A DNA stretch of 63,623 nucleotides, filler included, from a bacterium (lineage in GTDB: Bacteria; UBA9089; CG2-30-40-21; SBAY01): the NCBI GenBank assembly GCA_040757115.1. It is 5 parts of 5 records of this genome, joined end to end, with 100 filler letters (N's around TTAATTAATTAA, not from the genome) between each part and the next. Parts side by side here need not be neighbours in the genome. Positions count along the whole stretch, not along the records: positions 12,823 to 25,501 come from JBFLYA010000112.1; 4 more parts are not named here. One strand, 5' to 3'. The notes under the pieces are model-generated. The model worked only from the letters and a program-made list of their open reading frames with translations, searched no databases and was not told the origin of the DNA. Made by a program: the position numbers and the translations under genes. Numbering within the stretch: position 1 is the first letter of the stretch; each line of letters begins with the position of its first letter. Of the stretch, positions 3,208 through 35,664 are shown piece after piece.

Positions 3208-3226
3208 GTCCTCAGATTCACTTAAA

Positions 3227-12822: not shown

Positions 12823-12954
12823 CAATTAATACTATCAGCCTGCTTAAAAAACATAAAAAACCTCCACTTAAAACTTCTTTTCTTTCGTAATCTCTCTCTC
12901 TCTTATACTTACAACTCTTATTTTGTTTTAACATTTTAACCAACCTCCTTTTTG

Positions 12955-13675
12955 TAATTGTTCAGCCACAAAGATACCACGACACAAAGATTAAAGGTAA
13001 CCGTTCAGGTAGTGTCCATAAGGAAAAAGGGGAAACACGGAAAAAATGGGAAAGGAAGAAAAGAAGTTAAAAAGATGAGATTGTGAGAAGCAAAACATCC
13101 ATCTTAACCTCTCACCCTGACCTGTCGCCAGGACAGACTTATCAACCTCTTAATTTCTTCCCTTCTTAGATTTACCCTTTTTCCCTGGTTTTTCCATTTT
13201 TCCTTTATTACAACCTGAACACTTACTATATATTTAACTGGAGTTTCGTGAATTTATTCATCATGGTTTAACCATAACCTTGCAATATAAATTCCAAATT
13301 TCAAATAACAAATTCCAAATAAATTCCAAACACCAAATTCCAAAACCTATTGCTTTGTCAATTTTGTTAAAGGGAGTTGAATATTTTACTCAATAATGTC
13401 AGATTTAGGTTTTTCAATAATTGAAGGACACACTCCTAACCCCTCTCAAGAGGGAAATATAACTCTTCTTTAATTCTATTGCCTCATTGAAAAGCACTTC
13501 TTCTTCTTTTGTTTGGAATTTTGATTTTTGGTCATTGGAATTTATTTGTGATTTGGAATTTTGTAATTCACTCACTATTTTTTGCAACTCATGGTTTAGC
13601 CATAACCTTGCAATAATTCCTCTTCCTGGTGTTCTCAGGGGATTTCAATCTTCTAAAAATCACGAAACTATAGTT
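12955..13675. repeat. Cluster of nested MITEs and hairpins
   Basis: Family-A element at 12997-13226. A 27-bp direct repeat TCATGGTTTARCCATAACCTTGCAATA (13261, 13588) brackets an AAATTCC heptamer hairpin. Confidence 0.6.
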
Positions 13676-13851
13676 TAATATAGCATATATTTTAACAAAA
13701 GTCAAGTATTTTTTCGATTTTTGTCAGAAAGAACAGTTACATATATAGCACTTATTCGACCTGTGAAATAGGTCGACCTGGGAAAACAAAATTATACTCC
13801 ACTGCCTGGTGTAAGAAAAGGAGATAGGGAGATTAAGGAGATAAGGGGATA

Positions 13852-14089
13852 TTATTCTAATTCCACTCTTCTAAAATCTGCCTTTTCTTTAGCAAAGTTT
13901 ACAAGAATAGCCACCTTTACACCTGTAGCTTTTAAATATGAGCGAACCTGAGCATAATGAGCTTTGCTTAATTCCTCCACCGTTTTTAGTTCTACTATTA
14001 CCTTGCTTTCTACAAGAATATCCAATCTGTGTTTCCCAACTTCTTCTCCTTCGTAGTAGATTAGTATTTCTTTCTCTGTCTCAACTCTC
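13852..14089 (-). pseudogene. C-terminal half of a GxxExxY-family protein
   Basis: Reads VETEKEILIYYEGEEVGKHRLDILVESKVIVELKTVEELSKAHYAQVRSYLKATGVKVAILVNFAKEKADFRRVELE*. The 5' part is replaced by a GGTGGTGTCT element end at 14090. Confidence 0.8.
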
Positions 14090-14345
14090 GGTGGTGTCTT
14101 AATCTAGCATAAAGGTTGAAAGAGTGTAAGAAAAGGAGATATGGGGATTATGGAGATAAGGAGATATTATTAAAAAAATTGAAATTAGTAGAAACTAATA
14201 GAAATTTATGGAAATTTGTTGTTTCCCACAATCAATTTCTACCTATTTCTATAAATTTCAATCTATTTCTATTATCTTATCTCCATATCTTCCTTATCTC
14301 CTTATCCCCTTTCTTACACTTTTGATATATAGCCTGAATGGTTAC
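14090..14345. mobile_element. Composite of a family-C left end, a GGAGATAAG 9-mer hairpin element and a family-A right end
   Basis: GTGTAAGAAAAGGAGAT...CTTTCTTACAC inverted arms; reverse-complement copy at 25602-25708. Confidence 0.6.
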
Positions 14346-14440
14346 CCTTTTCTTTATATTTTACTTTTGGAACTATTGGGGGCAGACCGTGAATGTTGAA
14401 TGTAGAAGAAACTGCTTTCTACATTCAAGGTCTGATCCTA

Positions 14441-14620
14441 ATCTACCCCCGCCACCACCAAAAGAATAATAGAAGATTTGTGCAACTACCTTACCATCTT
14501 TGTCCGTAATCACCCTTGTTGAACCTAAGTGGTCATTATGGTAGTAATATGGTTTTGCTGGACTGCCAAACGGGTTTTCTTCCAAGTTAACACCTAACTC
14601 GCCATTGTCATAGACATACT
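14441..14620 (-). pseudogene. Short Rhs core fragment bounded by REP-like motifs
   Basis: YVYDNGEL..LEENPFGSPAKPYYYHNDHLGSTRVITDKDG, a paralog of the segment at 17820-17985. Confidence 0.75.
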
Positions 14621-14933
14621 AATTAAGCAAATTTTGTTTTCAAGGTCTGGCCCCAACCTGGCTTTCCAGAGAAAAGGCTAAAGTTTTCTGAAAATTTTGC
14701 CGATTAATTAAATGTGATTCTTTCATCGAGGATACCTCCCAGTTTAAAAAAATTTATCTTTCTATTAGGTATCCTCGGCATTTTTCTTAAAATTCTTTAA
14801 TTTTTTCTAATTGACCCCAAACCTATTTTTCTATCTGCTATCTCTAACTACTTGTTATCCAAAGAGATAGCTCATACCTAAAATTATACCTATTGTCAAC
14901 ACTCACTCAAGATCTGACCCTAACTCCCTTTGC

Positions 14934-16493
14934 CTAACTCCCTTTGGGCCTGACCCCAATCTTCCCCCCTGATAACTTTTTCGCTACAATAATAACTATC
15001 TTTCCTGCATCAGCACTTTTAGATATAGAATTTATAGCTTCGATATAACAAATATAGACACCTATAGGAACAACTCTATTTTCTCTATCTTTACCATCCC
15101 ATGTAACTTTATTCTTTCCATATAATAAGTTTTCACGATCAATCAATGTTTTAATCTCTCGACCTCTTATGTCATAAATTATAACGTTTACTGAAGACTC
15201 AACGGCTAAAACAAATGAGATTTCTGTTATTTCTCTAATAGGTTCAAATGGGCTTTTAGAGACTTCAATTTTTGAAATATTTGCTCTCACAGGAATTTCT
15301 CTATTATCTTTACCCATAGTAGGTGTAGGGTCTACTTGCCAATCATTTTTACTATTCGTATCTACAGTATTTATCCGAGCTATTGATTCTTTATCATTAA
15401 CAGAACTAGTATTTACACAATCTGATTCCTCTGCTTTTTCTCCTGCAATAATCCATTGATTTGCTTTAACAAGTACATCTACTTTCTCGCCCTTACTCCA
15501 GTTATCATCATAATTAGCCCAACATATTGCATCTTCAATATTACCCACAGCATCATAAAATACTACTTGTGAATCTGTAGATACCAGTGCAGTACTATGA
15601 GCAAATAAATCAATGATACCATCTAAGTCAGAATTTTTCTCGTCCCTGGAAGGGTCGCCTTTATGGAGCACAAGATACTCACCTGTTTTTATAATCGTCA
15701 TAGGAGAAATAGTTTTTATTATTGTACAACCATCTCTTTCTAAATAGCAATCACCAATATCAATTCCTTTTCCTCCATTCCCGTCATCTTTGCAATAAAG
15801 TTCTATCCAATCTTCACTATCGTCTTCTTTAAAACCTACTTCATTTATTATTATACAAGTAGATGGGGGGAGTGTAGATAAATTGGGTGCTCCTGGGGTA
15901 GAATTTTTGAAGATAGACCAATTAGTCACCTCGTTTGTATCAATTCCATTAGGACTTAATCCAAAGGAATCATCTTCTTTGAGGCTAAAGGTATCAATAT
16001 AGGTATCATTTGTCCATATCTCTGCCTGGACCGCAATATCATCATCTGAATTAGGTATAGTATACATATTATCACTACAATAGGTTACAAAGTCTATGAT
16101 AGTTGATGCGTCATGAATAGAACTTCTATACAAGGATACTTGGTCTTCGGTATTAGTCCATTTATCAGCTACGCCAGTATATAAATCTGTTGTAGTGTTG
16201 TCCGCGGGAGTATTTTTAGAATTATAATGTACTACTACATATCTTCCTGGTTTTAATACAAAATTTGGAAATGTATACCAATTACCATCTTCATCCCCAA
16301 GTTCCCACCAGGTCATATCTATTTCATCTGCTCCAGTATTATAAAATTCTATCCACTCATCCCCTTTACTATCTGCTCCTTTAGGATCATACATGACCTC
16401 ATTTATTACTATACGAGCACTTACTATTTTTACTCCTGATAGAGAAAGTAAGCATACCAGTGATATAAGAATATTATTTAGATATTTTTTCAT
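14934..16493 (-). CDS. Secreted protein with two lamin-tail domains and a FlgD-Ig-like C-terminus
   Basis: Signal peptide; IVINEV..EWIEFYN and IIINEV..DWIELY; C-terminal IYDIRGREIKTL...WDGKD...GVY. Confidence 0.8.
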   Translation of the reverse strand: MKKYLNNILISLVCLLSLSGVKIVSARIVINEVMYDPKGADSKGDEWIEFYNTGADEIDMTWWELGDEDGNWYTFPNFVLKPGRYVVVHYNSKNTPADNTTTDLYTGVADKWTNTEDQVSLYRSSIHDASTIIDFVTYCSDNMYTIPNSDDDIAVQAEIWTNDTYIDTFSLKEDDSFGLSPNGIDTNEVTNWSIFKNSTPGAPNLSTLPPSTCIIINEVGFKEDDSEDWIELYCKDDGNGGKGIDIGDCYLERDGCTIIKTISPMTIIKTGEYLVLHKGDPSRDEKNSDLDGIIDLFAHSTALVSTDSQVVFYDAVGNIEDAICWANYDDNWSKGEKVDVLVKANQWIIAGEKAEESDCVNTSSVNDKESIARINTVDTNSKNDWQVDPTPTMGKDNREIPVRANISKIEVSKSPFEPIREITEISFVLAVESSVNVIIYDIRGREIKTLIDRENLLYGKNKVTWDGKDRENRVVPIGVYICYIEAINSISKSADAGKIVIIVAKKLSGGKIGVRPKGS

Positions 16494-16550
16494 GTTTATG
16501 TGAATGGATATATTTTATTTTTTTTACTCTGTATTTTTTGTCTATCAATC

Positions 16551-16997
16551 TTAACATCTCTCAATCCTGAAGATAATATCATCAAAGTTATCATCTGGAT
16601 GAGCATCGTTACATTTGTATCTACGGCCATTTGGGAGCTCTTCTACTATCATTGCAGCCCCATTTAACCAGGAATGAATTACCCCATCTCCTGTACTCCA
16701 AACATTTACAACTTCTAATTCCCCGTTTTTACTTTTGCATATAATCTCAACCTCTTTTGGTGCCGTATTTTCCCATAAACCAATACTTTCTTTAAATAAT
16801 TTTCCGTTAACTTCAATTCCCTTATCTGTTTTTAAACTTATTCCCTGACACCATTCAGAATTAGTTGATTCAAAAACCACCTTTAATTTTTGACTTTTAT
16901 TTTCAAGCGGAAATTTATCCCACCTTCTAAGAATTTTTCCCTTATATTCTATAGGATGCCCTTTTGATTTCCTAAATTCATCTTCAAATACTACCAT
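16551..16997 (-). CDS. Putative immunity protein for the upstream HNH-type Rhs toxin
   Basis: Directly follows the toxin with a GGAGGTG RBS; ends RRYKCND...FDDIIFRIE. Confidence 0.65.
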   Translation of the reverse strand: MVVFEDEFRKSKGHPIEYKGKILRRWDKFPLENKSQKLKVVFESTNSEWCQGISLKTDKGIEVNGKLFKESIGLWENTAPKEVEIICKSKNGELEVVNVWSTGDGVIHSWLNGAAMIVEELPNGRRYKCNDAHPDDNFDDIIFRIERC

Positions 16998-17010
16998 TTA
17001 GTCTCACCTC

Positions 17011-18261
17011 CTAATATCCTGTATATCTGAATGGATCAACTTTGGCATGTTCAATAGGCCATACGAGTTCTAAATTCCATAGATTATGAGGATCAACAAT
17101 ATCTCTCCCTTTAATATGATGTAACTCCAGAGATTCCAATTTCCCTATATTATTAATTCGGTGTGGAGGAAGACCTTTTTTCATTCTTTCAACATTCTCA
17201 ACACCCCATTTCTTTAGACTATCAGGTTTTAATGCCTCATTCTTCCAGACTCTTGCCCTTACCGCACTCCAGCTTGGGTATTTACCAGCCCTGGTTAGTT
17301 TATTAACAGGGTCACCAAGTTTCCAACCTTTCACTCCTAATCGAATAGCCTCATCGCCAGGTAATATTGAGAATGCTGCCATACTAACAGCCAGCGTTGT
17401 TTCTCCTAATCCTACTTCTGGACTTCCTAATGCTTTTGAGGCCGTGGGGATACCAGTAGAAATATCCAGCATCTTCTCAAACATTGGTTCGGTAAATCCT
17501 TCAAACATCAATCTGGTTTCAGAAGTAAATATCCTATCAGCCAAATCATCACCAATCCAGAATCTTATAAAACCTTCAAACCATCCACTCCACCAATCTG
17601 AGACTATATTATTTCTCATCCCTGTAGGATCAATGTACTTGAAAGGGTTATTGTAACAGTAGACATATTTATTGAGATCTTCTGGTTTAAAACTATTCTC
17701 AACTGGATCAGGCTGGATAAATCTGCCCAGTGCTGGGTTGTAGTAGCGGGCGCCAAAGTAAAATAAGCCTGTTTCATCCAACTCCTTACCTGTAAATGTT
17801 GGTCCCCCTGTAGGTCCGCCACCACCAAAGGGATAATAGAAATACTGCTCGACTACCTTGTCATCTTTATCAGTAATAGCCCTTGCTGAACCTAAGTGGT
17901 CATTATGGTAGTAATAGGGTTTTGCTGGACTGCCAAGCGGGTTTTCCTCTAGCTTAACCCATAACTGCCCATTACCATAGACATACGAGGTCTTACTGGT
18001 AATAGTTACCTTCTCTGCCGGTGGTGATTCTAACTTCTGGACTACCCGCACTATCTCGTATGCCTTGCCATTGGCAAGTGATGTCTGACTAATTCCTATT
18101 CCCTCTTTTCCTCGCTCATCTTCTATCCCTGCCTTTACATAAGAATCTACATGTTGTAGCTCTTTATACTGAAATATAATCAAACCGTCCACATTCAGTA
18201 TTACCTGAAATGTCTCTTTTTTATCACCTGGCGAGTACAATGGTACATCTTCCCAACTCAT
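17011..18261 (-). CDS. Orphan Rhs module with a predicted HNH/EndoVII-fold nuclease C-terminus
   Basis: Rhs core (DHLGS..FTGKELD..ARYYNP..GRF..DPTGM); C-terminal PSWSAVRARVWKNEA..NVERMKKG..ELHH..NL..WP.EH..DPFR. Confidence 0.8.
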   Translation of the reverse strand: MSWEDVPLYSPGDKKETFQVILNVDGLIIFQYKELQHVDSYVKAGIEDERGKEGIGISQTSLANGKAYEIVRVVQKLESPPAEKVTITSKTSYVYGNGQLWVKLEENPLGSPAKPYYYHNDHLGSARAITDKDDKVVEQYFYYPFGGGGPTGGPTFTGKELDETGLFYFGARYYNPALGRFIQPDPVENSFKPEDLNKYVYCYNNPFKYIDPTGMRNNIVSDWWSGWFEGFIRFWIGDDLADRIFTSETRLMFEGFTEPMFEKMLDISTGIPTASKALGSPEVGLGETTLAVSMAAFSILPGDEAIRLGVKGWKLGDPVNKLTRAGKYPSWSAVRARVWKNEALKPDSLKKWGVENVERMKKGLPPHRINNIGKLESLELHHIKGRDIVDPHNLWNLELVWPIEHAKVDPFRYTGY

Positions 18262-18357
18262 TACCCATTTATCACCTAAATCCTTATATGTAATCTTACC
18301 ACCATCTCCTGGATTCAGGTCTCTAAAAAATGGTGCTATCTCTATTATCAGGGATGC

Positions 18358-18890
18358 TTAATTTTCAAAGAACAATTCGACCCTATCCTCCCTACTATCC
18401 TCCCTAGGAGATGAAGAATCTATAGTATCCTCAAGAATATCCTCAAATGGCACAGGCAATGTCTGTAACACTACTGGTTCTAATATTGGGTCTTTGGTAA
18501 TAAACCTACCAACATCTGCATCCATATACCTCGCCCGATAGAAATATAAGCCTGATTCAGTATCAAATTCTCTCGAAGTAAAGAGGTATGGATTAGGTAT
18601 ATCACCTATCTTATCTCTAAGAGCACCAAAAGCATCGTAACTATAACTCGCTATAGACTCACCATCTGGATTTGTTAAGTGAACTATACTTCCCAAACTA
18701 TCTGCATGATAATAGTAACTTTCGCCATCCCTTGTCATACTAATCAAATCATCAATCCCGGGACCATGGACATAGCTGACTACTACATTCCCCTCTTCTA
18801 CCTCCGCCAGCACATCCTCTCCATCATAAATATATCCTGTCAAAGAACCAAAGACCGCCTTCCCAATTCGTCTGCCAAATGGGTCATAGG
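18358..18890 (-). pseudogene. Rhs core fragment lacking a toxin domain
   Basis: [35 protein letters not shown], cut after DSSSP by a GGGTCGAATT motif. Confidence 0.75.
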
Positions 18891-18908
18891 TGCCCCCCGA
18901 TTCCCCCT

Positions 18909-19286
18909 CTATATACACTCCCCGGATAAACACTCTTCTATCCTTCTGTCTATTTCAACGTCAGAAATGTCATTATAATCTAAGACTTTATCATAGCATC
19001 TTTTCAAAATTTCAGCATCCTTTTTATGCTCTAATATTTTACTTGCCACATACAGAGAAAGATATTCCCAAGAATCTTTTTGTGGAAAATTATTTGTGTA
19101 ATCTAAATGTACAAAGTATTCTGTAATATCACCAAATATTTCTTCAAAAAACTCTTCGGTAATATTTTTAGGCCATACCTTTTCAAGCTCTTGAATATTT
19201 TTAATTTTCCCTAGTAAAACATCTTGGCAAATATCTTTTATTTTACATCTTATGCTATCTTGTTTATCCATAACTACCTCTCCCAT
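18909..19286 (-). CDS. Putative immunity protein
   Basis: Small helical protein immediately downstream of an Rhs toxin C-terminus (likely start MDKQ). Confidence 0.6.
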   Translation of the reverse strand: MGEVVMDKQDSIRCKIKDICQDVLLGKIKNIQELEKVWPKNITEEFFEEIFGDITEYFVHLDYTNNFPQKDSWEYLSLYVASKILEHKKDAEILKRCYDKVLDYNDISDVEIDRRIEECLSGECI

Positions 19287-20434
19287 GGTCTATGTTTCTT
19301 TAGCTGAGATTTAGTTTTTCCACTATGATAGTGAAATTTCTGCCAAAACTTATTCACTTCCTTTCCCCATTTATGCCAATCAATACCAAAAACTCTTTTT
19401 CCATTTTTATAAAAGTTAAGTCCTCCTCCTCCTGCGTTTTTATATCGCATAAATTTAACTGCCCATTTAGATCCTTTACTCACAAGTCCTAACCCTGGGA
19501 TAAGCATTAACTCATCCCATGTAGATTCAAGTCCAGGCTCTTCAGGGCATAGTCCAAATGAATCTATCCAATTAAGTGGATCATTGTAGCAGTAGGTGTA
19601 AGGATGAAAGTCTTCAGGGGTGTATATCGTATAAGGGACTATAAAATCAGGAGAATCAGGAGATGAAGAATCTATAGTATCCTCAAGAATATCCTCAAAT
19701 GGTACAGGCAATGTTTGTAACACTACTGGTTCTAACATTGGGTCTTTAGTTATAAACCTCCCCACTTTCGGGTCATAGTATCTTGCGCCGAAGTAATATA
19801 AGCCCGTTGCCTCATCATATTCTTTGCCAGTGAAAGTGAAGTTATTTTCAATCTTTCCCTCTGTATTTATCAACTCACCAAAAGGTAAATAATCACTCGA
19901 CCAAACTATTTCTCCCATACTATCAGTCATCACCCTTGTTGAACCTAAGTAATCATTATGATAATAATATACTTTCTCGGACTGAGCAGGTTTTTTATCT
20001 ACCCTCGCGACTAATTCATCATTAGCATAAATATAGGAGATAGTTCCTAAAGGCACATACACAGGTTTATCTTCTCCCTTGATAATCTCTACATCATCTA
20101 TATACCACCCTTCATAGTCGTTATACCACCCATCTACTGTATCAAAATTAAATCTTAGTTTTATCTTCTTACCCGCGTAGTTTGAAATATCAAAGGATTC
20201 CTCATGCCAGTCCATAACCGATGGTCCTTCATTACAATCGTTATAAAAAATCCTATTCCACTTCTGACTATCCCAAATCTCTACTTTCATATTGTCATAA
20301 TTCCCAGAAGGATAAGACTCATGTTGCCATCTTGTCCAGAAATTTAATCTAATCTTATCTTTTATCCCGGATAAATCAATTAATGGTGAAAGAGAAGAAC
20401 CAGAATTTCTACCACCGGTATTATGGGGGATGTT
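19274..20434 (-). CDS. Orphan Rhs module: beta-sandwich (MAM/InhA-like) fragment, Rhs core and His-rich toxin C-terminus (DWH..HYH..HRPWE)
   Basis: LRFNF.T.D....EGWYIDDVEI followed by the Rhs core. The apparent start at 20485 lies inside a REP-like palindrome, so the module is probably a 5'-truncated cassette. Confidence 0.75.
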   Translation of the reverse strand, partial: NIPHNTGGRNSGSSLSPLIDLSGIKDKIRLNFWTRWQHESYPSGNYDNMKVEIWDSQKWNRIFYNDCNEGPSVMDWHEESFDISNYAGKKIKLRFNFDTVDGWYNDYEGWYIDDVEIIKGEDKPVYVPLGTISYIYANDELVARVDKKPAQSEKVYYYHNDYLGSTRVMTDSMGEIVWSSDYLPFGELINTEGKIENNFTFTGKEYDEATGLYYFGARYYDPKVGRFITKDPMLEPVVLQTLPVPFEDILEDTIDSSSPDSPDFIVPYTIYTPEDFHPYTYCYNDPLNWIDSFGLCPEEPGLESTWDELMLIPGLGLVSKGSKWAVKFMRYKNAGGGGLNFYKNGKRVFGIDWHKWGKEVNKFWQKFHYHSGKTKSQLKKHRPWER

Positions 20435-20496
20435 GAGGTCAGACCGTGAATGTTGAATGTAAAAGGAACTGCTTTCTACATTCAAGGTCTGCCCCC

Positions 20497-20967
20497 CTAC
20501 TGCCCCTCTTTCTTTTCTGTTAAAAGTTCTTCTGCTGTTTTATCTTTATTTCGTTCAGACCAAAATACTGTTAAATCTTCTTTTTCTCTAATTAATTCCA
20601 ATAACTGATTTGATTCATATAAAGTACTGGTAATATCAGTTCCATCCTCAATTTTATCAGCCAATATTTCTTCTAAATCAGAAAGTCCACAAAATATCCA
20701 ATGAACAACTTCGCCTTTAATATTTTTATATTTCTGTTCTTCTTCTTTACCCAGATTAAGAGCTTTTAAGTAAGCTGTTTCATTGTCTGGTGCTTGAATA
20801 ATCCGAATTTGCTCATCAAAAGTCCAAGGACCGGAATCCTTTTTACCTACTTTACATTGCATAACTATTTTTGCAACATACCATTTCATAGATTTTCTGG
20901 TTTTGGTAAGAGATATGTTTTGTTCTGATGATAAATTGCTTTTTTGATACTTTTTATTCCTAACCAC
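20497..20967 (-). CDS. DUF4288-like protein, putative immunity
   Basis: WYVAK..FDEQIRIIQA...AY.KA..LG..E...YKN..GE.V.W.F.GL pattern. Confidence 0.7.
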   Translation of the reverse strand: MVRNKKYQKSNLSSEQNISLTKTRKSMKWYVAKIVMQCKVGKKDSGPWTFDEQIRIIQAPDNETAYLKALNLGKEEEQKYKNIKGEVVHWIFCGLSDLEEILADKIEDGTDITSTLYESNQLLELIREKEDLTVFWSERNKDKTAEELLTEKKEGQ

Positions 20968-20998
20968 AACAGATTATCTCTCTCCTTTTTATATCTTC

Positions 20999-21560
20999 TT
21001 ACTTTTTAGACTTACTATACTTCTTTTGCTTAAGAAGTTTTAAAGTTTTCCTTGCTTTCCAATTACCTTTTTTTGCCAAAGCTTCTATTTCTGCCAGTGT
21101 TTTTCCAAGCATTTCACTAGGAAATTCTCTAAGAATACTACCCTTTTTAGCCAGAGAAATTATCTCCTGTGCAGTTTTTGCTCCTTTCCCTGCTTTCCCA
21201 ACAAGTCCTAACCCTGGGATAAGCATTAACTCATCCCATGTAGATTCAAGTCCAGACTCTTCCGGGCATAGTCCAAACGGGTCTATCCAATTAATTGGGT
21301 TATTGTAGCAGTACATATAGGGATGGAGGTCTTGGGGAATATCTATCATCTCTGGGACTATAAAATCAGGAGATGAAGAATCTATAGTATCCTCAAGAAT
21401 ATCCTCAAATGGTACTGGCAATGTCTGTAACACTACTGGTTCTAATATTGGGTCTTTTGTAATAAACCTCCCCACTTTCGGGTCATAGTATCTGGCGCCG
21501 AAGTAATATAAGCCCGTTGCCTCATCATATTCTTTGCCAGTGAAAGTGAAGTTATTTTCA
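20999..21560 (-). CDS. Orphan Rhs core plus short basic toxin C-terminus (KKGSILREFPSE..)
   Basis: [32 protein letters not shown] then the C-terminal domain; no convincing start codon. Confidence 0.75.
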
Positions 21561-21836
21561 AAGAACTCTATCTTTAAGGACTTTTATTAAGGTTTTTCTC
21601 TTTAATCAAAGGGGTTAACAAAAGAAGTTGTCAATTTAACCCCTTTGCCTCTGCTTTAGAGAAAACCCCTGCTCAAGGACGACCCGCAACCGGGTGCCCC
21701 GTCAACCTCGTCGGGCTAAAAAGTAAAAGCAAAGAGGTCTACTTAAAGTTTACTCATAAAATGTTGGTTCTGTTAATTAAAAATTTTTATTATGAATGAT
21801 ATTTTTTACTTGACAAACCCTTTTCATAGGTGACCC
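21281..21836. repeat. ~555-bp direct repeat, copy 1 (Rhs core plus ~280-bp non-coding structured leader)
   Basis: Near-identical to 22631-23191. Confidence 0.85.
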
Positions 21837-22374
21837 CAAATCCACCTCCCTTTTTCAAAAGGAGTTCAGATAGTTCGCGCTTGACTACAGATAGGTCATA
21901 AATGCTTGGGATACCAGGTGAACGGTTTGCTATATGTTCCTCTAAAAATCTAATTGACGCACTAATATTTCCTAACTTTTCATAACTCCGACTAATTCGA
22001 TATCTACAGTCATTCAACAAGGAACGTGCCCAACGAACACCCTCTCCACAGTCACCATAGGCTATTGCTTCTACCCCTTTCTTAAGCAATTTCTTCCATA
22101 TCGCTATCGCTTCTTTGTTCTTATTTACCATATCAAGCGATCCAGCATAATCCCATAGGACCAATGGACATTTTGGTGCCAACTTCATTGCTTTCTCACT
22201 CAGTTCCAATGATTTTTCGTATTCATATTCTTCGTAGTAAATTGAGCCAAGTCGTGTCACTAACCAATGGTCGTCTGGTGATTTCTTTAATTCTCTGGAA
22301 ATTAACAAACGTGCTTTTCGCCATTCCTCTCGACTAATGTAGATTTCAATCTTTTTAGCAGTTTCTGAGTTCAT
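21790..22374 (-). CDS. TPR protein, putative immunity
   Basis: TPR-like helices; follows a toxin C-terminus; the 3' end runs into the leader repeat. Confidence 0.65.
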   Translation of the reverse strand: MNSETAKKIEIYISREEWRKARLLISRELKKSPDDHWLVTRLGSIYYEEYEYEKSLELSEKAMKLAPKCPLVLWDYAGSLDMVNKNKEAIAIWKKLLKKGVEAIAYGDCGEGVRWARSLLNDCRYRISRSYEKLGNISASIRFLEEHIANRSPGIPSIYDLSVVKRELSELLLKKGGGFGVTYEKGLSSKKYHS

Positions 22375-22380
22375 TTTTTA

Positions 22381-22914
22381 TCACTTCCTTCTATAAGGTC
22401 GATATTTATCACCCTTTTCTCCACCTGGTCTATCTCTCTTTTTGCGACTTATTCCCTTTTCATGTTTGCCTGCGGTGCTGGGTCGAATTTTACTCTTATG
22501 TACTTTTATCCCTTTTATAACACCACCCAAGCACATTCCTTCTGCTATTTCCTTAACATCAGCCCAAATCTTTTTTTCTAACTCCGCATCTATTACCCAC
22601 CACGGTTTCTCTCCGCACAATCCTAACGGATCTATCCAATTAATCGGGTCATTATAACAGTTAGTCACATATAGGGATGGAGGTCTTGGGGAATATCTAT
22701 CATCTCTGGGACTATAAAATCAGGAGATGAAGAATCTATAGTATCCTCAAGAATATCCTCAAATGGCACAGGCAATGTTTGTAACACTACTGGCTCTAAG
22801 ATTGGGTCTTTTGTAATAAACCTCCCTACCTTCGGGTCATAGTATCTGGCGCCGAAGTAATATAAGCCCGTTGCCTCATCATATTCTTTGCCAGTGAAAG
22901 TGAAGTTATTTTCA
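22381..22914 (-). pseudogene. Orphan Rhs core plus basic toxin C-terminus (RPST..KHEKG..RK.RD..GEKGD), frameshifted
   Basis: A 5-nt insertion near 22661-22666 gives ATG TGA in place of ATG TAC of the paralog. Confidence 0.75.
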
Positions 22915-23191
22915 AAGAACTCTATCTTTAAGGACTTTTATTAAGGTTTTTCTCTTTAATCAAAGGGGTTAACAAAAGAAGTTGTCAATTTAACCCCTTT
23001 GCCTCTGCTTTAGAGAAAACCCCAGCGCAAGGACGACCCGCAAGCGGGTGCCCCGTCAACCTCGTCGGGCTAAAAAGAAAAAGCAAAGAGGTATACTTAA
23101 AGTTTACTCATAAAATGCTGGTTCTGTCAACTAAAAAATTTTTATTATGAATGATATTTTTTACTTGACAAACCCTTTTCATAGGTGACCC
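22631..23191. repeat. ~555-bp direct repeat, copy 2
   Basis: Near-identical to 21281-21836. Confidence 0.85.
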
Positions 23192-23208
23192 TAATCTCTT
23201 CCTTCCTC

Positions 23209-23421
23209 CTATAAATCTTCTGAGTACATTATTATTGTATCAATTGATCCTTCCTCTAAATTCCCCATAGACCTCATCAAATGCCAATGTCCCGCTGGTG
23301 TAAGTTCACCAATAATACTTAAACAAATATTGGATAAATCTCTTAATCCCTGGGCATCTGCCATAATAGTTATTTCATTTTTATCCTTGTCGTATGTAAT
23401 TTTAACTTTTCCATTTTCCAT
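23209..23421 (-). CDS. Imm32-like immunity protein
   Basis: EITI.AD..GL..L...C....GHWHL....LEEGS pattern, downstream of a toxin C-terminus. Confidence 0.65.
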   Translation of the reverse strand: MENGKVKITYDKDKNEITIMADAQGLRDLSNICLSIIGELTPAGHWHLMRSMGNLEEGSIDTIIMYSEDL

Positions 23422-23429
23422 AGTTATTT

Positions 23430-24049
23430 CTATTCCCTTTTTGGAGATTTAGGGTACCAATTTGTTCCATCTGGTGACCATTCTTGGCGTTTTCCATCAC
23501 GTAAATGTCCTCTATCCCAGTGAGAACCTCCTTTCTTGTGTTTATCTTCAGGATCTTCATGCCAATGATAGTACCAGTCATTATCTCTTTGGTCTTCGTG
23601 AAGATTCGGATCAAATTGAGGTTCTGGTGGATATTTTGGAGGTTCTGCTTGTTGAGCTAATCCAAGTAATGAGGATAAAAACTCTTTTGGAAAAAGCAAA
23701 GCAAGAAAACCTAATCCAAACTCAGATAACCAATCTTCTATTAAAGCCTGATCTTCTGGACTTATCGGGCATAATCCCCACAAGTCTATCCAATTAATCG
23801 GATCATTATAGCAATAGACATACTTATGTAAATTAGGTGGAAAGTAAACATTACCTGTATATGGATCTTTTGTTATAAACCTCCCTATCTTCGGGTCATA
23901 GTATCTGGCGCCGAAGTAATATAAGCCCGTTGCCTCATCATATTCTTTGCCAGTGAAAGTGAAGTTATTTTCAAACTCTGTCTCTGGTAACTCTACCTTT
24001 ACCTTGCCTGTAACACTATACCTAACTCTGACACCATTAAGAGAATATT
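23430..24049 (-). CDS. Orphan Rhs core plus toxin C-terminus with an H..D..H...HWD motif (putative RNase)
   Basis: Frame is open from ~24049 without a start; Rhs core then ..YYHWHEDPEDKHKKGGSHWDRG... Confidence 0.7.
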
Positions 24050-24120
24050 GGGTCGGAACCTTGAATGTAGAAAGCAGGTTTGTGCATTCCGACCCCCAAC
24101 TACCCTATTTCAAAGAACAA

Positions 24121-24858
24121 TTAAGAGAATGAAAATCGTCCTCTTTTTTCTATAAATCCTTTTTTAGCTAATTCATTTAGATAATCATGGGCAATTTTGT
24201 TATTTGGCTCTATTTTTAATACTTCTTGCAGTTCTTTTTTTCCATCATTTATTAAGCCTAATTGAAAATAAATTTCTGAAAGTAAGGCATGTGCCTGAAG
24301 CCTATTTTCTTCTGATAACCTTAATTTAAGTGCCTTTTTATATAATTCAATTGCTTCTTTGTATAAACCTAATTGTTGGGTATTTATCCCTTTTTCTACT
24401 TCCTCTATCTCTTTTACATGCAGAAATTTACCAAGATGAAGATAAGCAGTTCCAAATTTAGGCTTTAGTTTTATCACTATTCTTATATATTCTAAAGCCT
24501 TATCATATTCCTTACGAAGATAATATATATTAGCGGCATTGAAATATGCTTGGTAACATTTAGAATTGGATTTTATTACTTTTTCAAACTCTACTAAAGC
24601 CTCGTTATGTTTTTCTTGAGTATAAAAATTATATCCCAATTTAAAATGGTCACCAATATCCTGAAACACTTTACTCCTTAAGAAATCAAGAAACAAATAA
24701 ATTCCTATTAAAACTAATCCTAATGGAATAAACTTTATTTGTTGCCACCACCATATCCTCATTAGATATTCTTCAGCAATATAATTAACTAAATTCCAAA
24801 AACATATAGTTATTATTAGAGCTGTAATAAATATGAATAAATGTATTAAGAAAGCCAT
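24121..24858 (-). CDS. Membrane-anchored TPR protein (putative immunity)
   Basis: Two N-terminal TM helices and several TPRs; follows an Rhs C-terminus. Confidence 0.65.
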   Translation of the reverse strand: MAFLIHLFIFITALIITICFWNLVNYIAEEYLMRIWWWQQIKFIPLGLVLIGIYLFLDFLRSKVFQDIGDHFKLGYNFYTQEKHNEALVEFEKVIKSNSKCYQAYFNAANIYYLRKEYDKALEYIRIVIKLKPKFGTAYLHLGKFLHVKEIEEVEKGINTQQLGLYKEAIELYKKALKLRLSEENRLQAHALLSEIYFQLGLINDGKKELQEVLKIEPNNKIAHDYLNELAKKGFIEKRGRFSFS

Positions 24859-24884
24859 ATCTATTTGACCTCAAATTCCCCCAC

Positions 24885-25501
24885 CTATTCCACTTTTTGT
24901 GAACCACTACCGTACTTTTTCCTCCACTCCTCTAATAATTCCTTTTCACCCTCATTAAGAATTGGAGGGTCTATCCAATCAGCAGCTATAAAAGTAGCTT
25001 TCATTACAGCTCTTTTTGCTGCCCATTTTAAAAGTGCATCAAGTCGCTTTGCATATTCTGTAATATAGGGTCCTCTCACTGCCTTAGTTATCTCCAGCAG
25101 TTTAGCAGGAGGAATGAGTAATCCACCAATAGCAATCTCTTCCCCACAATATCCATAAGGGTCTATGTAGTTTATGGGGTTATTATAGCAATACATGTAT
25201 GGATGAATATTCTGAGGTATAGTTAGACCTTCTGTAATAATAAGTTGAGCAATGATAGGATAGAGAGCACCATTTATAATTCTTTCATCTTCGGGTGTAC
25301 AAGACCATGGGTCTTTTGTAATAAACCTCCCTACCTTTGGGTCATAGTATCTGGCGCCGAAGTAATATAAGCCCGTTGCCTCATCATATTCTTTGCCAGT
25401 GAAAGTGAAGTTATTTTCAATCTTTCCCTCTGTATTTATCAACTCACCAAAAGGTAAATAATCACTCGACCAAACTATTTCTCCCATACTATCAGTCATC
25501 A
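24885..25501 (-). CDS. Rhs module truncated by the contig end
   Basis: Rhs core near-identical to 19740-19930, with a different helical C-terminus after DPYGY. Confidence 0.8.
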
Positions 25502-25601: not shown

Positions 25602-25893
25602 TGGAAAACAACAAATTTCCATAAATTTCTATTAGTTTCTATTAATTTCAATTTTTTTAATAATATCTCCCTATCTCCTTAATCTCCACATCTCCTTTTG
25701 TTACACCACCTGAACGCTTACAAATTTTTTTAACCACAAAGATCACAAAGAGTTTCACAAAAGAGTCAAAGATTTTTGAGAGAATAAATTTTTCCCTTTA
25801 TTTCTTTGTGTATTCTTTGTGTACTTTGTGGTTAATTTCAGAGACCATTTAATTTTCTTCGTGTCCTTCGTGTTCTTCGTGGTGAATAGTTAC
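25602..25893. repeat. Nested 9-mer hairpin repeats and family-A right ends
   Basis: Reverse-complement match to 14124-14227; CACAAAG/CTTTGTG arms; TGAACGCTTAC and TGAATAGTTAC ends. Confidence 0.6.
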
Positions 25894-25895
25894 AC

Positions 25896-26891
25896 TTATT
25901 TTTCAATTATAGTTTCATCTATCTTCATCCCAAAATGTCTTCCAGCATCTTCCTGGTAGGCTAATACTTCACTTCCTTCTTGTAGCGAAACAATGGAGAT
26001 AGGACTTCCATCTGGTGTGCAAAGTCTGATAGTTTCTGCATTTTGGAGGATTAAAGAAACTATTTTTGAATTGATTTTTCCTTCTAACAACATCAATGGT
26101 CTTTTTTCTATCTTTATTCTACCAACAATGGCTGATTGAGTTTGTCCTGTTGAATTAACAATTAATACTTCATCACCTGTTTTTAACTCGGATAAATATT
26201 TAGTTTTACCTCCTGGTAGAAGTGTATAGGCATGGACAGCGCCGGCATTAACCCTGAAAGGTCTGGGTTCGACATAAGGATTTTCAACACTCTCTGAATG
26301 GACTAAAAACATTGCACCTGAAGAATTCCCGGCTAACATCCCTTCTCCTTGCTTCATATTGGTACAGGTATCAATACAAACCCTGTCTCCCATTCCCAGA
26401 GGTTCTATTTTTGTAATTTTTGCAATGGCAATCTCTAATTTCTCTTGAGTATTTTTGATTAGTTGTGCACATCTTTTTATCTCATTTAAATCGGTTGTCT
26501 CAAGCAGAACACCCGCAACTCCTTTTTCTAATATTTGAATAGCGATTTTTGTCTCTTTTTCATTATGAACATAAGCTATTAATCCGGCAGGATTTTGAGC
26601 AATTAAATTCTCTAATGGGATAATTGTCCAATCGTTTGTTTTAATAATAAGTGTTTTGGATTTTGACAACTTAGCGGCGGTTTCTTCATCCTGTTTATTA
26701 TTGATTTCAAACTCAACGACATCTTCATTTAGTTTCAAATCACCATTTTTAGAGATAGTTTTAATTTTGCCCAATTCCTTTACCTTTTCCTCAAATCCTT
26801 CTTCAACCCAAATAGCATCTACGCCACTTTCTAATGCAGTTGTCACAACCGCTTTATTAAACGGAATAGATTTTAGCCAGATAGTTTTCAT
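25896..26891 (-). CDS. 3-dehydroquinate synthase II (archaeal-type AroB')
   Basis: DWTIIPLENLIA, GMGDRVCIDTC, RPFRVNAGAVHAY, LQNAETIRL, GRHFGMKI.E.I.EK. Confidence 0.92.
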   Translation of the reverse strand: MKTIWLKSIPFNKAVVTTALESGVDAIWVEEGFEEKVKELGKIKTISKNGDLKLNEDVVEFEINNKQDEETAAKLSKSKTLIIKTNDWTIIPLENLIAQNPAGLIAYVHNEKETKIAIQILEKGVAGVLLETTDLNEIKRCAQLIKNTQEKLEIAIAKITKIEPLGMGDRVCIDTCTNMKQGEGMLAGNSSGAMFLVHSESVENPYVEPRPFRVNAGAVHAYTLLPGGKTKYLSELKTGDEVLIVNSTGQTQSAIVGRIKIEKRPLMLLEGKINSKIVSLILQNAETIRLCTPDGSPISIVSLQEGSEVLAYQEDAGRHFGMKIDETIIEK

Positions 26892-26897
26892 TTTAGA

Positions 26898-27007
26898 TTC
26901 TCCTGAAAATAGTTAATTAGAGATTAGAGAATTAGTGAATTAGAACCTGCACTCTTGCTAATCTCTAATCTCTAATCTCTAATCTCTATGCCCGATTTTC
27001 ATCCTCC
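26898..27007 (-). repeat. Family-E repeat with ATTAGAG heptamer hairpin
   Basis: TTCTCCTGAAAATA...ATTTTCATCCTCC; its AGGAG sits at the RBS position of DHQ synthase II. Confidence 0.65.
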
Positions 27008-27016
27008 TCGTATCAT

Positions 27017-27778
27017 CTATTCTTTTGTTTCATATTTGTAGACCTTTGGTTTAAAATCAACCTTATTTTTTAAAACCATGGTATCTTCTTTTAAAGACAA
27101 AAGATAAAATCCTTCTTTTTCTGCAATCCTTACTGCATCATGGGATGGATTCATATAGGCAATTGCACCAATTACTGGTAGATCATTGTATTTAGGAAAG
27201 AATTCATAGAAAGAGGAAATGTCTTCTAATGCGTCGTTTATATCTCTTGGTTCAAAATATGTCTTTACCTCAACTATTATAACATAGTCCTGGTTTTCTC
27301 CCCTGGCTATGCTTAATAGGTCTAATTCTAAGGTATTTCCGTTCATATGAGAAAGAGCCCTTGGAAAGGTTTGGATAATCTTTATCCCTCTTTTTGAAAA
27401 TGCCTCTGTTAGAGATACAAGTGCCATACCCTCTGTTAATCTTCCCCAACCATCTGATATGCCTGCTACCAATTTCCTTGTTTTTTCAAACTCTTTATCT
27501 GTCTTCTTAAACATAGCCCTTAATTCCTCATCTGTTTTTTTAAGTTGCTCATCTGTTTTTTTAAGTTGCTCATCTGTTTTTTTAAGTTGCTCATCTGTTT
27601 TTTTAAGTTGCTCATCTGTTTTTTTAAGATGTTCATCTGTTTTTTTAAGTTGCTCATCTGTTTTTTCTTGAGCCTTTTTGAGGGTTTCTTGAGATTTTCT
27701 AAACTCTTCCTGGCTCTTTAAAAGTCTTTCTATTCTTCTATCTACATTATCAAGTCTTTGTTCAACCTTCATAGCCAT
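27017..27778 (-). CDS. Coiled-coil repeat protein with a C-terminal PD-(D/E)XK nuclease-like domain (DUF3782/DUF1626-like)
   Basis: (LKKTDEQ)n heptads, WGRL.E, ELDLL..IIVEVKT. Confidence 0.7.
   Translation of the reverse strand: MAMKVEQRLDNVDRRIERLLKSQEEFRKSQETLKKAQEKTDEQLKKTDEHLKKTDEQLKKTDEQLKKTDEQLKKTDEQLKKTDEELRAMFKKTDKEFEKTRKLVAGISDGWGRLTEGMALVSLTEAFSKRGIKIIQTFPRALSHMNGNTLELDLLSIARGENQDYVIIVEVKTYFEPRDINDALEDISSFYEFFPKYNDLPVIGAIAYMNPSHDAVRIAEKEGFYLLSLKEDTMVLKNKVDFKPKVYKYETKE
27529..27665. repeat. 21-bp coding tandem repeat, about 6.5 copies
   Basis: TCATCTGTTTTTTTAAGTTGC units. Confidence 0.9.
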
Positions 27779-27793
27779 TTTATATCACCTCCA

Positions 27794-28363
27794 TTAAAAT
27801 ATCTCTTTAAGATTAAAATTTAGCCCTTTGATTAAATTTGATTTAACCACATCCCCTATTTTATAAATGCCCGTATCTTCATACAACTTGCCTGTATGAG
27901 AAAATATCTGGAGTGTTTTTTTATCTGCATCTAATAGCCAGTATTCCTTTACTCCATAAGTTTCATAGAGTCTCTTTTTTAATAGTTTATCCAAATTTTG
28001 GGTATAAGGAGAGGTGATTTCAATAATTAAATTGGGTGCACCTTCAATATACTTGTCCTTGATTATATTCAGATTCTCTTTAGAGATAAAGAATATATCT
28101 GGTTGGACAACATCTTCATCTGAAAACAGAACATCACAAGGTGCATAAAATACCTCCCCTAATTTATTAATTTTAACAAATTGTTGTAGAATTTCAAATA
28201 ATTTGGCTGATATCCTTTGATGATAAGGAACTGGTGCTGGACTCATATAAACCTCCCCCTGTATTATTTGATACCTTTTCCCGTCATCCGGGAACTGAAC
28301 ATAATCCTCGTATGTCCATTTTTCTTCTTTTGTAGCTAAAATTGGCATTGCTTTCCTCCTCAA
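27794..28363 (-). CDS. Uma2-family endonuclease
   Basis: WTYEDY..PDDGKRYQII.GE..MSPAP..HQ, VQPDI, P.LIIEI.SP, YGVKEYW. Confidence 0.9.
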   Translation of the reverse strand: MRRKAMPILATKEEKWTYEDYVQFPDDGKRYQIIQGEVYMSPAPVPYHQRISAKLFEILQQFVKINKLGEVFYAPCDVLFSDEDVVQPDIFFISKENLNIIKDKYIEGAPNLIIEITSPYTQNLDKLLKKRLYETYGVKEYWLLDADKKTLQIFSHTGKLYEDTGIYKIGDVVKSNLIKGLNFNLKEIF

Positions 28364-28422
28364 AATAGACTATAGACCATAGACTAACTTACCTCCTGTC
28401 TACTACCTACTACCTACTATTT

Positions 28423-30903: not shown

Positions 30904-31084
30904 TGTCTTATCCTCCTCTCTGTTATTTTTGATTTTTGATTGTAGATTTTATAATTAACTAATTGCTAAAAGCGATAGGGCAATTTCATTTACTCACCTT
31001 TTGCATGATTATGAGATACTTGAATCCCCTTAAGTAAAAATTATATATCCTTGCTCTTTCATGCCAGATTGGTGTATTTGATGA

Positions 31085-31309
31085 CTATCTTGTCTCAAAA
31101 TTATCAATACCCCAAGCATGACATTTTGGACATCCGATAGGTTCACCCACATAAGCCTCTCCATACCCCATATTTTTTACCCAGTTTGGTGTTTCACTTA
31201 TATATTCAGGTTCTTCCGCATTTGTAGCCATACAGTAGTTATAACTGTTAATCTGAAACACTAAAGAATTTCCCTTATAATTACAGTTTTTGCATTGGTA
31301 TTTTGTCAT
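31085..31309 (-). CDS. Small Zn-ribbon protein
   Basis: CKNC...CPKC; ATGA overlap with the HNH gene. Confidence 0.55.
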   Translation of the reverse strand: MTKYQCKNCNYKGNSLVFQINSYNYCMATNAEEPEYISETPNWVKNMGYGEAYVGEPIGCPKCHAWGIDNFETR

Positions 31310-31917
31310 TTCTCTTCCTCTTTTTGGTTACCGTTAGGTCCTGGTATATGGCTATTGATACCATATTTATTGTAGCATTCAAACAAGCATTTACAAAAAT
31401 TGATTATTTTCTTATCACCGACTTTAACTGCTTGTTTGTACAAATTAATAAAATATCTTTTACCTCCTTCAGTTTGAGAGAAATTTTTCTTACGGAGGTT
31501 GCATTCCATACATAATGTTTGTCCATTATCAATAGTATTATCTCCACCTTTATCTTTTGGTTTTATATGGTCTGCACATAACTCAACACCTTCATATCTA
31601 CCACGACCACATAGAACACATTTATAATTATCTTTTTTAAATATTTCTTCCTTCACTTCGGGCGGGAAATCGAAGAGTTCAATTTCCTTTATATAATCAG
31701 GTTCGTATCTGTAAACTCCCTTTTTGACTTTTATTAGTTTGCCTTCTTGATGAAATTTACGGATTTGACGCCAGGTATCACGGGGCTTTTTGCCATACAA
31801 TTTTAGATATTGCTTTTCAACCCAGTCAACAACTGGTCCATGCTCTAAATCTTTTTTCGAATGTTTGCGGAAATATTCCATTACTAAATCCGCGATGGTT
31901 TTTATTCTATCACCCAT
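31306..31917 (-). CDS. HNH restriction endonuclease (type II R-M)
   Basis: KDNYKCVLCG...DHIKPKDKGG.....NGQTLCMECN; adjacent to the MTase. Confidence 0.8.
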   Translation of the reverse strand: MGDRIKTIADLVMEYFRKHSKKDLEHGPVVDWVEKQYLKLYGKKPRDTWRQIRKFHQEGKLIKVKKGVYRYEPDYIKEIELFDFPPEVKEEIFKKDNYKCVLCGRGRYEGVELCADHIKPKDKGGDNTIDNGQTLCMECNLRKKNFSQTEGGKRYFINLYKQAVKVGDKKIINFCKCLFECYNKYGINSHIPGPNGNQKEEEK

Positions 31918-31922
31918 TAATT

Positions 31923-32741: not shown

Positions 32742-32761
32742 CTAACCCACATTCCAATACA

Positions 32762-33694: not shown

Positions 33695-33713
33695 TATTTG
33701 CACCAATACATCG

Positions 33714-35356: not shown

Positions 35357-35386
35357 ATCACCTACCTATTGTAAGGTAATCGGTAA

Positions 35387-35635: not shown

Positions 35636-35664
35636 ATGGTCACCGATTACCTGATTATCTTCCT

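Follow-up and report, generated by a model that had tools for sequence, protein, structure and literature searches.

The DNA described here is a stretch of 63,623 nt (the window), composed of six contigs joined by runs of N. Its subject is an array of Rhs toxin/immunity genes and the short repeats that lie at the junctions of this array. The array nearly fills the second contig (positions 12823-25501; G+C content 0.36) and lies on the minus strand throughout. It comprises six Rhs toxin/immunity pairs, two toxin-less Rhs fragments and a gene for a lamin-tail-domain protein, a gene list that was given in a preliminary description of this DNA and with which open reading frames (ORFs) and profile matches agree. 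The model TIGR03696 (Rhs_assc_core, cut-off 32.5 bits) matched four of the five Rhs ORFs tested with 74-81.7 bits; the miss is the downstream frame of cassette C, in which the frame stops after ...HPYM at the core end and the toxin domain resumes in another frame. Sister cassette D is intact at that point. All six pairs show a ...DPxGL-like demarcation followed by a variable domain, and all six have a small ORF downstream (one Imm32, one DUF4288, two with TPR repeats and two without a family). The core ends of the cassettes are 92-99% identical to one another, the toxin domains being unlike. A unit of 1354 nt, consisting of a junction repeat and a core end, is duplicated and encloses different toxin/immunity pairs. 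With these features the region is a common type of orphan array, made up of cassettes of Rhs polymorphic toxins.

Orphan Rhs, or C-terminal displacement, arrays were reportedly described by Jackson et al. in 2009 and by Koskiniemi et al. in 2014. The present arrays resemble them in having a main Rhs gene (1432 aa, at the head of the homologous array on contig C335 of the nearest relative, G001) followed by modules of core end, toxin and immunity gene, with near-identical core ends, differing tips and truncated fragments. They differ in that the spacers are filled with transposon-end repeats, in a conserved Rhs-specific box, and in some MAM-like or NIDO-like N-terminal parts joined near the core end. 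These parts are joined almost directly to the last Rhs repeats, without a long YD shell, in the window (19274-20485 and 17011-18357) and on G001 contigs C330, C243, C302 and C238. The features of the array contig are listed in Table 1.

Table 1. Features of the array contig, from high to low positions
Feature	Position	Strand	Remarks
Cassette A	24885-25499	-	Rhs core end and variable C-terminal toxin domain; TIGR03696 81.7 bits; runs off the contig end at 25501
Immunity candidate A	24121-24858	-	245 aa; TPR repeats (Pfam TPR_2 62.5 bits and others) and N-terminal membrane segments
Junction box AATTGTTCTTTGAAAT	24107-24122	-	overlaps the stop codon of immunity candidate A
Variant palindromic element	24046-24104	-	arms GGGGTCGGAA / TTCCGACCC; DNA hairpin z -2.1; inserted into a conserved orphan leader
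Orphan cassette B	23430-~23990	-	short Rhs core end and toxin domain; TIGR03696 80.5 bits
Immunity B	23209-23421	-	70 aa; Pfam Imm32 39.2 bits (cut-off 27)
Junction repeat e2	22921-23191	-	~270 nt, starts GGGTCACCTATGA; 95-98% identical to e1, 76% to a copy in G001 C212 (L055 6053-6290)
Orphan cassette C	22381-22937	-	frame broken near 22668-22719; ORFs 22665-22937 and 22381-22719 in different frames
Immunity candidate C	21790-22374	-	194 aa, TPR; Pfam TPR_14/TPR_2; final ~15 codons run into the e1 head
Junction repeat e1	21567-21836	-	second copy of the ~270-nt repeat
Orphan cassette D	20999-21583	-	TIGR03696 81.2 bits
Immunity D	20497-20967	-	Pfam DUF4288 74.6 bits (cut-off 27)
Palindromic element, copy 2	20433-20506	-	85% identical to copy 1; DNA hairpin z -5.2, 0/200 shuffles as good; starts 1 nt past the immunity D stop codon; module E ORF begins within it
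Module E	19274-20485	-	MAM-like domain, Rhs core, toxin domain; 5' end cut by hairpin; Pfam RHS 42.9 bits, InhA-like_MAM 31.8 bits
Immunity candidate E	18909-19286	-	125 aa; by position only, no Pfam or NCBIfam match
Toxin-less Rhs fragment F	18358-18933	-	starts in YD repeat, cut after DSSSP; Pfam RHS_repeat 22.5 bits
Junction box AATTGTTCTTTGAAAA	18362-18377	-	5' limit of the block that the window has in common with G001 C330 and C243
Module G	17011-18357	-	NIDO-like N-terminal part, Rhs core, nuclease-like toxin domain; TIGR03696 74 bits; Col-Pyo_DNase 21.1 bits, under the cut-off of 27
Immunity candidate G	16551-16997	-	148 aa, no family, by position only; syntenic in G001 C330
Lamin-tail-domain protein	14934-16493	-	519 aa; Pfam LTD 99.7 bits; last codons read through the repeat head at 14947-14956
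Two repeat heads, GGGTCAGGCC and GGGTCAGATC	14911-14957	-	separated by a short tandem repeat; the homologous G001 C330 site has a head with other tandem units
Solo head GGGCCAGACC, then TTGAAAAC	14639-14654	-	resembles the left end of the transposase element
Toxin-less Rhs fragment H	14440-14618	-	84% identical to part of module G; cut directly at hairpin head; Pfam RHS 24.9 bits, below cut-off
Palindromic element, copy 1	14376-14449	-	74 nt; DNA hairpin z -5.2, 0/200 shuffles as good

The preliminary description had placed a strand-biased GGGGTCA motif at twelve sites and on most module boundaries. As written, the motif hardly exceeds the chance level: exact GGGGTCA has six occurrences in the window, 5.09 +/- 2.25 being expected (43 of 100 shuffles have at least six), and the signal of RNTTNGGGGTCA at up to one mismatch is weak (14 against 7.48 +/- 3.02; 3 of 100 shuffles reach 14), with seven of the 14 matches within the array region and two of these being plus-strand Rhs-core coding sequence. 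What stood was a sharper form, the 10-mer GGGTCAGACC. With up to one mismatch allowed, the array contig has seven hits and the remaining five contigs (51 kb) have none; for the reversed sequence as control these numbers are 0 and 4. Six of the twelve sites (14431-38, 14644-54, 14915, 14951, 20486-96 and 24090-97) are heads or arms of one palindromic family, and two (21825-37 and 23180-91) are the head of a different repeat of ~270 nt, here called e1/e2. Four sites are assigned to neither repeat family: 14812 is isolated, 18378 lies in a degenerate spacer, 18885-98 enters YD-repeat coding sequence, and 24866 lies in a toxin-immunity gap, at an expected ribosome site. The reported strand bias is in part an artefact, since a full hairpin has the motif on each of its strands. 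Several reading frames end at or inside the motif, as had been noted before.

The palindromic element is 60-74 nt long and contains GTAG only within its inner stem. In the variant element at 24046-24104 two arm positions differ from the family consensus on both sides, so that the stem is kept. All heads in the window are degenerate and none has the exact 10-mer GGGTCAGACC, so the window elements are old copies.

A gene for a Y1 transposase is associated with the same head in the relatives. On G001 C335 the 1432-aa Rhs gene, its immunity gene and two orphan cassettes are followed by this gene; a doubled repeat head marks the exact point at which the toxin of the second orphan breaks off, and the transposase gene begins after this head. 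The head was seen here on the 5' side only, as the contig ends. Orthologues in G005 and G014 are complete (323 aa, 78-79% identical), and on G005:C35 and G014:C31 the gene is bounded by perfect 28-nt inverted repeats starting GGGGTCAGACC, which gives an element of 1042-1043 nt. The right (3') inverted repeat overlaps the transposase stop codon in both. Another copy, on G009:C65, has heads on both sides. The 323-aa protein matches Pfam Y1_Tnp with 50-53 bits (cut-off 23), the translation shows an H-Y-H triplet and a GRY motif, and the C-terminus carries a DnaA_C-like helix-turn-helix (Bac_DnaA_C 31.3 bits, cut-off 31.5). The transposase has several paralogues in G001, where 11 Pfam Y1_Tnp matches were found, nine of them above cut-off. 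In sequence the arms of the 74-nt hairpins correspond to the outer portion of the 28-nt repeats, and solo heads after immunity genes on G003 C81 and G005 C78 match the 28-nt repeat nearly in full; the hairpins are therefore probably short non-autonomous derivatives of the transposase element. From these matches the motif is identified as the head of the 28-nt terminal inverted repeat (TIR) of a ~1.04-kb Y1/HUH element; the motif also heads short hairpin derivatives of 60-74 nt. The derivatives are similar to REPINs (hairpins of paired repetitive extragenic palindromic, REP, sequences) or miniature inverted-repeat transposable elements. The link of a REP-like motif with an enzyme like the REP-associated tyrosine transposases (RAYTs), suspected earlier, is borne out by this gene in G005 and G014. 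The absence of such an enzyme from the window was also confirmed (best tblastn E-value 0.66).

Two other classes were rejected for the element. A strict REP-RAYT system has a palindrome of 20-40 nt, an unpaired GTAG or CGTC tag and hundreds of copies. The transposase scores 68.4-68.5 bits with the NCBIfam RAYT model NF047646, below the cut-off of 80, and together with the lack of an unpaired GTAG/CGTC tag, the length of 60-74 nt and copies in the tens this rejects a strict REP-RAYT (REPtron). An IS200/IS605 element, which would have a short TnpA and lack terminal inverted repeats, is rejected by 19 bits with the IS200 model NF033573 (cut-off 55) and by the 28-nt inverted repeats; the protein is nearer to the curated RAYT model than to IS200. 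The likeness to REP/REPIN-RAYT systems (in part after 10.1101/2024.07.17.603846) consists in short repeats that form hairpins and are linked with an IS200-like Y1 enzyme, in inverted doublets and in a location after genes. Differences are the score of 68.4 bits, tens instead of hundreds of copies, the missing unpaired GTAG tag and the several paralogues in G001.

The closest match is found in Di Nocera, De Gregorio & Rocco 2013 (PMC3733652), in whose passages on this subject 'TIRtrons' or 'TIRYT' are tyrosine transposase genes flanked by long inverted repeats. Some of those TIRs overlap the gene end and some share GGGGWSAS; the TIR repeat families are moderately abundant and occur as singles, dimers and clusters, and REPs in general are mostly found downstream of coding regions. 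The present element agrees with these passages in its Y1/HUH transposase, its long TIRs, the 3' repeat over the gene end, and a head, GGGGTCAG, that fits GGGGWSAS. It also agrees in being a moderately abundant family of singles, inverted dimers and clusters that lie mostly downstream of ORFs. It differs from the elements in those passages in its uncultivated groundwater host lineage and its C-terminal DnaA_C-like domain, and the link to Rhs junctions is a feature of the present arrays. By its agreement with the published description the element is assigned to the 'TIRtrons', relatives of the RAYTs, and is thus of a kind already named in print. Two classical RAYT genes (223 and 225 aa) are also present in G001, on C651 (L057) and C332 (L058), with their own tandem repeats upstream and the inverted form downstream. 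A repeat of these genes, GGGGACAC, likewise fits GGGGWSAS and is also found at Rhs junctions on C243, C302 and C432.

Genome-wide counts were taken from G001 and other relatives rather than from the window's own genome. G001 has 32% of sampled words in common with the window, and its assembly (770 contigs, 4.7 Mb) is very fragmented. Exact GGGTCAGACC occurs there in 46 copies against 2 for the reversed control, and the 74-nt element gives 54 matches at E<=10, 15 of them at E<=2e-10. The 10-mer is over-represented in all five genomes of the same family (46, 23, 15, 13 and 11 copies, control 1-3) and in two of six genomes of the sister family; most more distant genomes are at control level. In G003, 12 of the 23 copies make six inverted pairs at 43-58 nt from start to start, which corresponds to the hairpin element. 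Most copies lie away from Rhs genes: 38 of the 46 exact heads in G001 are on 29 contigs without an Rhs core, seven of them being found on C512 among unrelated genes (a Kelch/Ig-like surface protein, a porin-like protein and radA). An Rhs-core match is found on 14 contigs, and the other eight heads are spread over three of these (C335 three, C267 four, C243 one). Genomes G002, G004, G006 and G009 have 11-16 copies each and no Rhs-core match at E<=1e-5. The repeats are spread through the genomes of the bacterial family, often just downstream of ORFs. For 11 of 35 unique heads in the loci examined a co-oriented ORF of at least 80 aa ends within -30 to +40 nt. Because about half of these 11 are non-Rhs genes, a position just after a gene, even one that gives or overlaps the stop codon, is a family-wide habit of the repeat and not specific to immunity genes. 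The repeat is tied to Rhs only loosely.

Rhs junctions were compared at twelve loci, namely the window, seven G001 contigs (C335, C267, C243, C302, C238, C432 and C330), three of G003 (C321, C279 and C81) and G005 C78. The order across these loci is immunity stop codon, repeat head or heads, a conserved box, and the next module. The box, AATTGYTCTTTGAMAA (16 nt), is preceded by a T-rich run and stands at the 5' edge of nearly every Rhs module. In G001 it has ten exact copies (15 at one mismatch, control 1), of which nine are on Rhs-core contigs, always co-oriented with the Rhs genes. This box is a truly Rhs-specific junction mark. It is found without a head at junctions of G003 C279 and G001 C238, and the NIDO-type start directly after it is conserved in five G001 loci. 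An in-frame fusion of the same 12-13 letters of the box with the core end is seen at 21555-21566 and 22909-22920. Precisely where the box ends, a single upstream leader continues into a NIDO-type module (G001 C330 and C238) or into an Rhs core end (C267:1673). The box may serve as a promoter element, a reading proposed because similar boxes precede three non-Rhs genes, or else as a joint for recombination. On the promoter reading of the box and of TTGACA-like hexamers beside heads, the contig has no more consensus matches than its shuffles (44 against 46.0 +/- 8.1). Between head and box, G001 C335 (L083, ~1360-1545 and ~3190-3300) and C330 (L084, ~100-200) carry tandem arrays with a unit of either 17 nt (containing GAAGGGTCG) or 24 nt; the tandem unit and its copy number vary between homologous junctions.

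Within the ~270-nt repeat e1/e2 lie two pairs of promoter-like hexamers, a stem rich in G+C and a terminal hairpin, whose pairing survives two-sided changes in the copies of G001 and G005; the repeat may encode a small RNA. Its fold is unconvincing, with a z of only -1.84 and 11 of 200 shuffles as good, and the seven matches, in two of five family genomes, are too few for a covariance model. An IS110-family transposase gene is found 100 nt away from the G001 C212 copy, in the opposite orientation. In its G005 copies (L099-L101) the repeat shows a tie neither to Rhs nor to an IS110 transposase. In a scan of the whole window against Rfam at E<=1, no family was found in the array region, the matches being a tRNA at 3227-3298 and chance microRNA-like ones.

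Cassette breakpoints were taken from five homologous blocks between the window and its relatives. Cassette B matches G003 C321 over 23957-23210 (89% identity), from within the core to the immunity stop codon just before the purine tract and head, and G001 C335 over 23971-23629 (89% identity), from within the core to a point within the toxin ORF. Cassette D matches G001 C335:621-990 over 21558-21183 (88% identity), from the core start to where a repeat head cuts the G001 sequence. It also matches G001 C267 over 21558-21259, the 3' end being again within the toxin ORF. The fifth block, which is not a cassette, runs from module G to the lamin-tail gene and matches G001 C330 over 18377-14944, its 5' end lying at the box and its 3' end 3 nt beyond the repeat head 14947-14956. 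The 5' limits are thus in Rhs-core homology in four of four cassette comparisons. The leader that is interrupted in the window by the hairpin 24046-24104 is continuous in both orphans of G001 C335, so this hairpin is a secondary insertion and not a cassette boundary.

These observations probably reflect plain recombination in the Rhs core combined with passive colonisation of the array spacers by repeats. Going by the homology limits, cassettes would be replaced and displaced by homologous recombination in the conserved core end. The hairpins would be copied in trans by the transposase, as single-stranded DNA, and would survive in the dispensable spacer DNA that separates the immunity stop codon from the box AATTGYTCTTTGAMAA. 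The repeats would then add insertions and truncations, and may add short homology on the 3' side, without any dedicated machine for cassette capture.

Several observations weigh against this account. Three of the five 3' homology ends coincide with a head or its purine tract. In four cases (window 14440 and 20485, the third cassette of G001 C335, and G001 C267) an Rhs fragment stops immediately at a head or hairpin, at differing Rhs positions. Since the limit is constant with respect to the repeat and shifts with respect to the gene, insertions with adjacent deletions, or recombination between repeat copies, are a plausible source of these truncations. In five of the six window immunity ORFs the stop codon is overlapped by a head or has one within ~20 nt, and the same is seen for several in G001, G003 and G005. 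All seven near-exact window heads are in the array contig, and the transposase gene directly follows the Rhs array in G001 C335. In G001 the heads are roughly ten-fold enriched at Rhs arrays, an estimate that follows from 8 of 46 heads on Rhs contigs, the seven of known length summing to ~43 kb or 0.9% of 4.7 Mb; 2 of the 23 G003 copies and 1 of the 15 G005 copies in Rhs arrays point in the same direction. No test statistic is given for the enrichment because the copies are clustered, the relatives non-independent and the assemblies fragmented. Small numbers, non-independent relatives and the fragmented state of every assembly also limit the account as a whole.

An unlikely alternative, which overlaps with core recombination and passive colonisation, is that the spacer itself (heads and box, 100-300 nt, conserved between genera) serves as a downstream homology arm, and that any cassette between an Rhs core end and a spacer can be swapped by double crossover without a transposase; the repeats would then contribute to shuffling solely as portable homology. 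It is consistent with a spacer of head, short tandem units, hairpin and box that is nearly alike in G001 C335 (two copies) and in G003 C321 and C279 (three copies), and with cassettes C and D, where different toxin/immunity pairs lie between 95-98% identical core ends and e1/e2. The homology of cassette B with G003, whose limit is the stop codon of the immunity gene immediately ahead of the purine tract and head, and the single leader with two downstream partners joined at the box end (G001 C267:1673 against C330 and C238) also agree with it. The comparisons, however, include no recombinant pair with both crossovers mapped, two of the five 3' limits are within toxin ORFs and not in spacers, heads alone are short (10-28 nt) for RecA-type exchange, and the junctions on G003 C279 and G001 C238 have the box and no head.

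According to the preliminary description, a Y1 transposase would cut the hairpin heads and capture, excise or reorder toxin-immunity cassettes, in the manner of an integron with attC sites. Heads after nearly every immunity gene in the same orientation, strong folding of the hairpins as single-stranded DNA (z -5.2), a transposase at the distal end of the G001 array, enrichment of the copies at arrays and truncations that abut heads would all fit such a mechanism. It is nevertheless very improbable, and integron-like capture is not supported. The 5' cassette limits lie in core homology and not at heads; most heads are elsewhere (38 of 46 in G001 off Rhs contigs), also in genomes without an Rhs-core match; the window heads are degenerate, with no exact 10-mer, and one hairpin is a secondary insertion. 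The transposase adjoins one of the twelve Rhs loci (G001 C335) and none was found in the window; the other Y1 matches of G001, G003 and G005 are on other contigs, though the contigs are too short to prove its absence. The proposed scan for motif enrichment, made in G001, came out both ways: copies are enriched at Rhs arrays, and most are nevertheless away from them. The arrays share with the attC/IntI system of integrons folded single-strand hairpins at cassette limits and a co-oriented array of small cassettes. They differ from it in having no recombinase at a fixed position and no site seen at the 5' limit of the cassette, in that the enzyme is an HUH Y1 and not a tyrosine recombinase, and in that no excised circles were seen in the assembled contigs of one run. 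It is strongly doubted that heads or hairpins are working Y1/HUH substrates which, nicked on single-stranded DNA, move or truncate cassettes with the box AATTGYTCTTTGAMAA as fixed joining point. If this were true, Rhs arrays would gain an integron-like, enzyme-driven diversification on top of homologous recombination.

That the motif is a product of chance and of ribosome-binding purine tracts in a G-poor genome is barely credible: exact GGGGTCA at chance level, the site 24866 in the expected ribosome-site gap and promoter-like contig matches no commoner than in shuffles (44 against 46) speak for it, but the GGGTCAGACC counts (46 against 2 in G001, 7 against 0 across the window contigs), the two 74-nt copies of 85% identity and the perfect 28-nt inverted repeats around the transposase gene refute it for six to eight of the twelve sites, so that it stands only for the four sites assigned to neither repeat family.

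One public sequencing run, X1 (share 0.92), which is probably where the stretch comes from, contains it, in the form of assembled contigs, a kind of data in which rare circles are not visible. Depth over the unique parts of the array contig is even, about 274-320. Eight 'joints' were found on this contig, all of them at repeats, and seven have sides of only 27-30 nt. They are read as overlaps of the assembly graph rather than rearrangements, and bear on rare excision neither way. A metagenome scan with immunity D gave only five distant relatives (36-48% identity), so no further junctions were available for comparison.

A literature search on RAYT or REP together with Rhs orphan or immunity genes found no paper linking such repeats to Rhs cassettes. 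RAYT and Rhs are treated as separate topics in the relevant parts of 10.1101/2024.07.17.603846, and the sections of PMC10210955 on REP, Rhs, orphan and immunity genes do not link the repeats with Rhs cassettes. If core recombination and passive colonisation account for the array, it would document transposon-end repeats of the GGGGWSAS type in an uncultivated groundwater lineage, and would show how such repeats accumulate among the spare cassettes of polymorphic toxins and degrade their arrays. For annotation this would mean that many frames that break at a motif are repeat insertions. The enrichment of the repeat at Rhs arrays in three genera, or the 16-nt box at module starts, could provide a handle on the expression or exchange of orphan cassettes.

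Some further sequences of the window are unrelated to the motif or lie outside the array. The contigs 12823-25501 and 25602-38280 are both exactly 12,679 nt long, and are not duplicates, as their common sequence is just a 105-nt repeat of 93% identity. At the end of the first contig (12476-12560) lies an 85-nt near-perfect hairpin with GGGGTCAAGG on both arms (DNA fold z -7.3), a further G-rich repeat of this genome. Downstream of the array, amid miniature repeats, an ORF fragment of the PD-(D/E)XK_3 nuclease family is found at 13852-14103 (Pfam 83.8 bits). Beside the array, at 14124-14345, lies a 222-nt palindromic miniature element, unrelated to the motif, which occurs in at least 35 places in G001 (91-97% identity) among the matches listed and whose summed word depth in X1 is ~92,000, against ~294 for unique parts.

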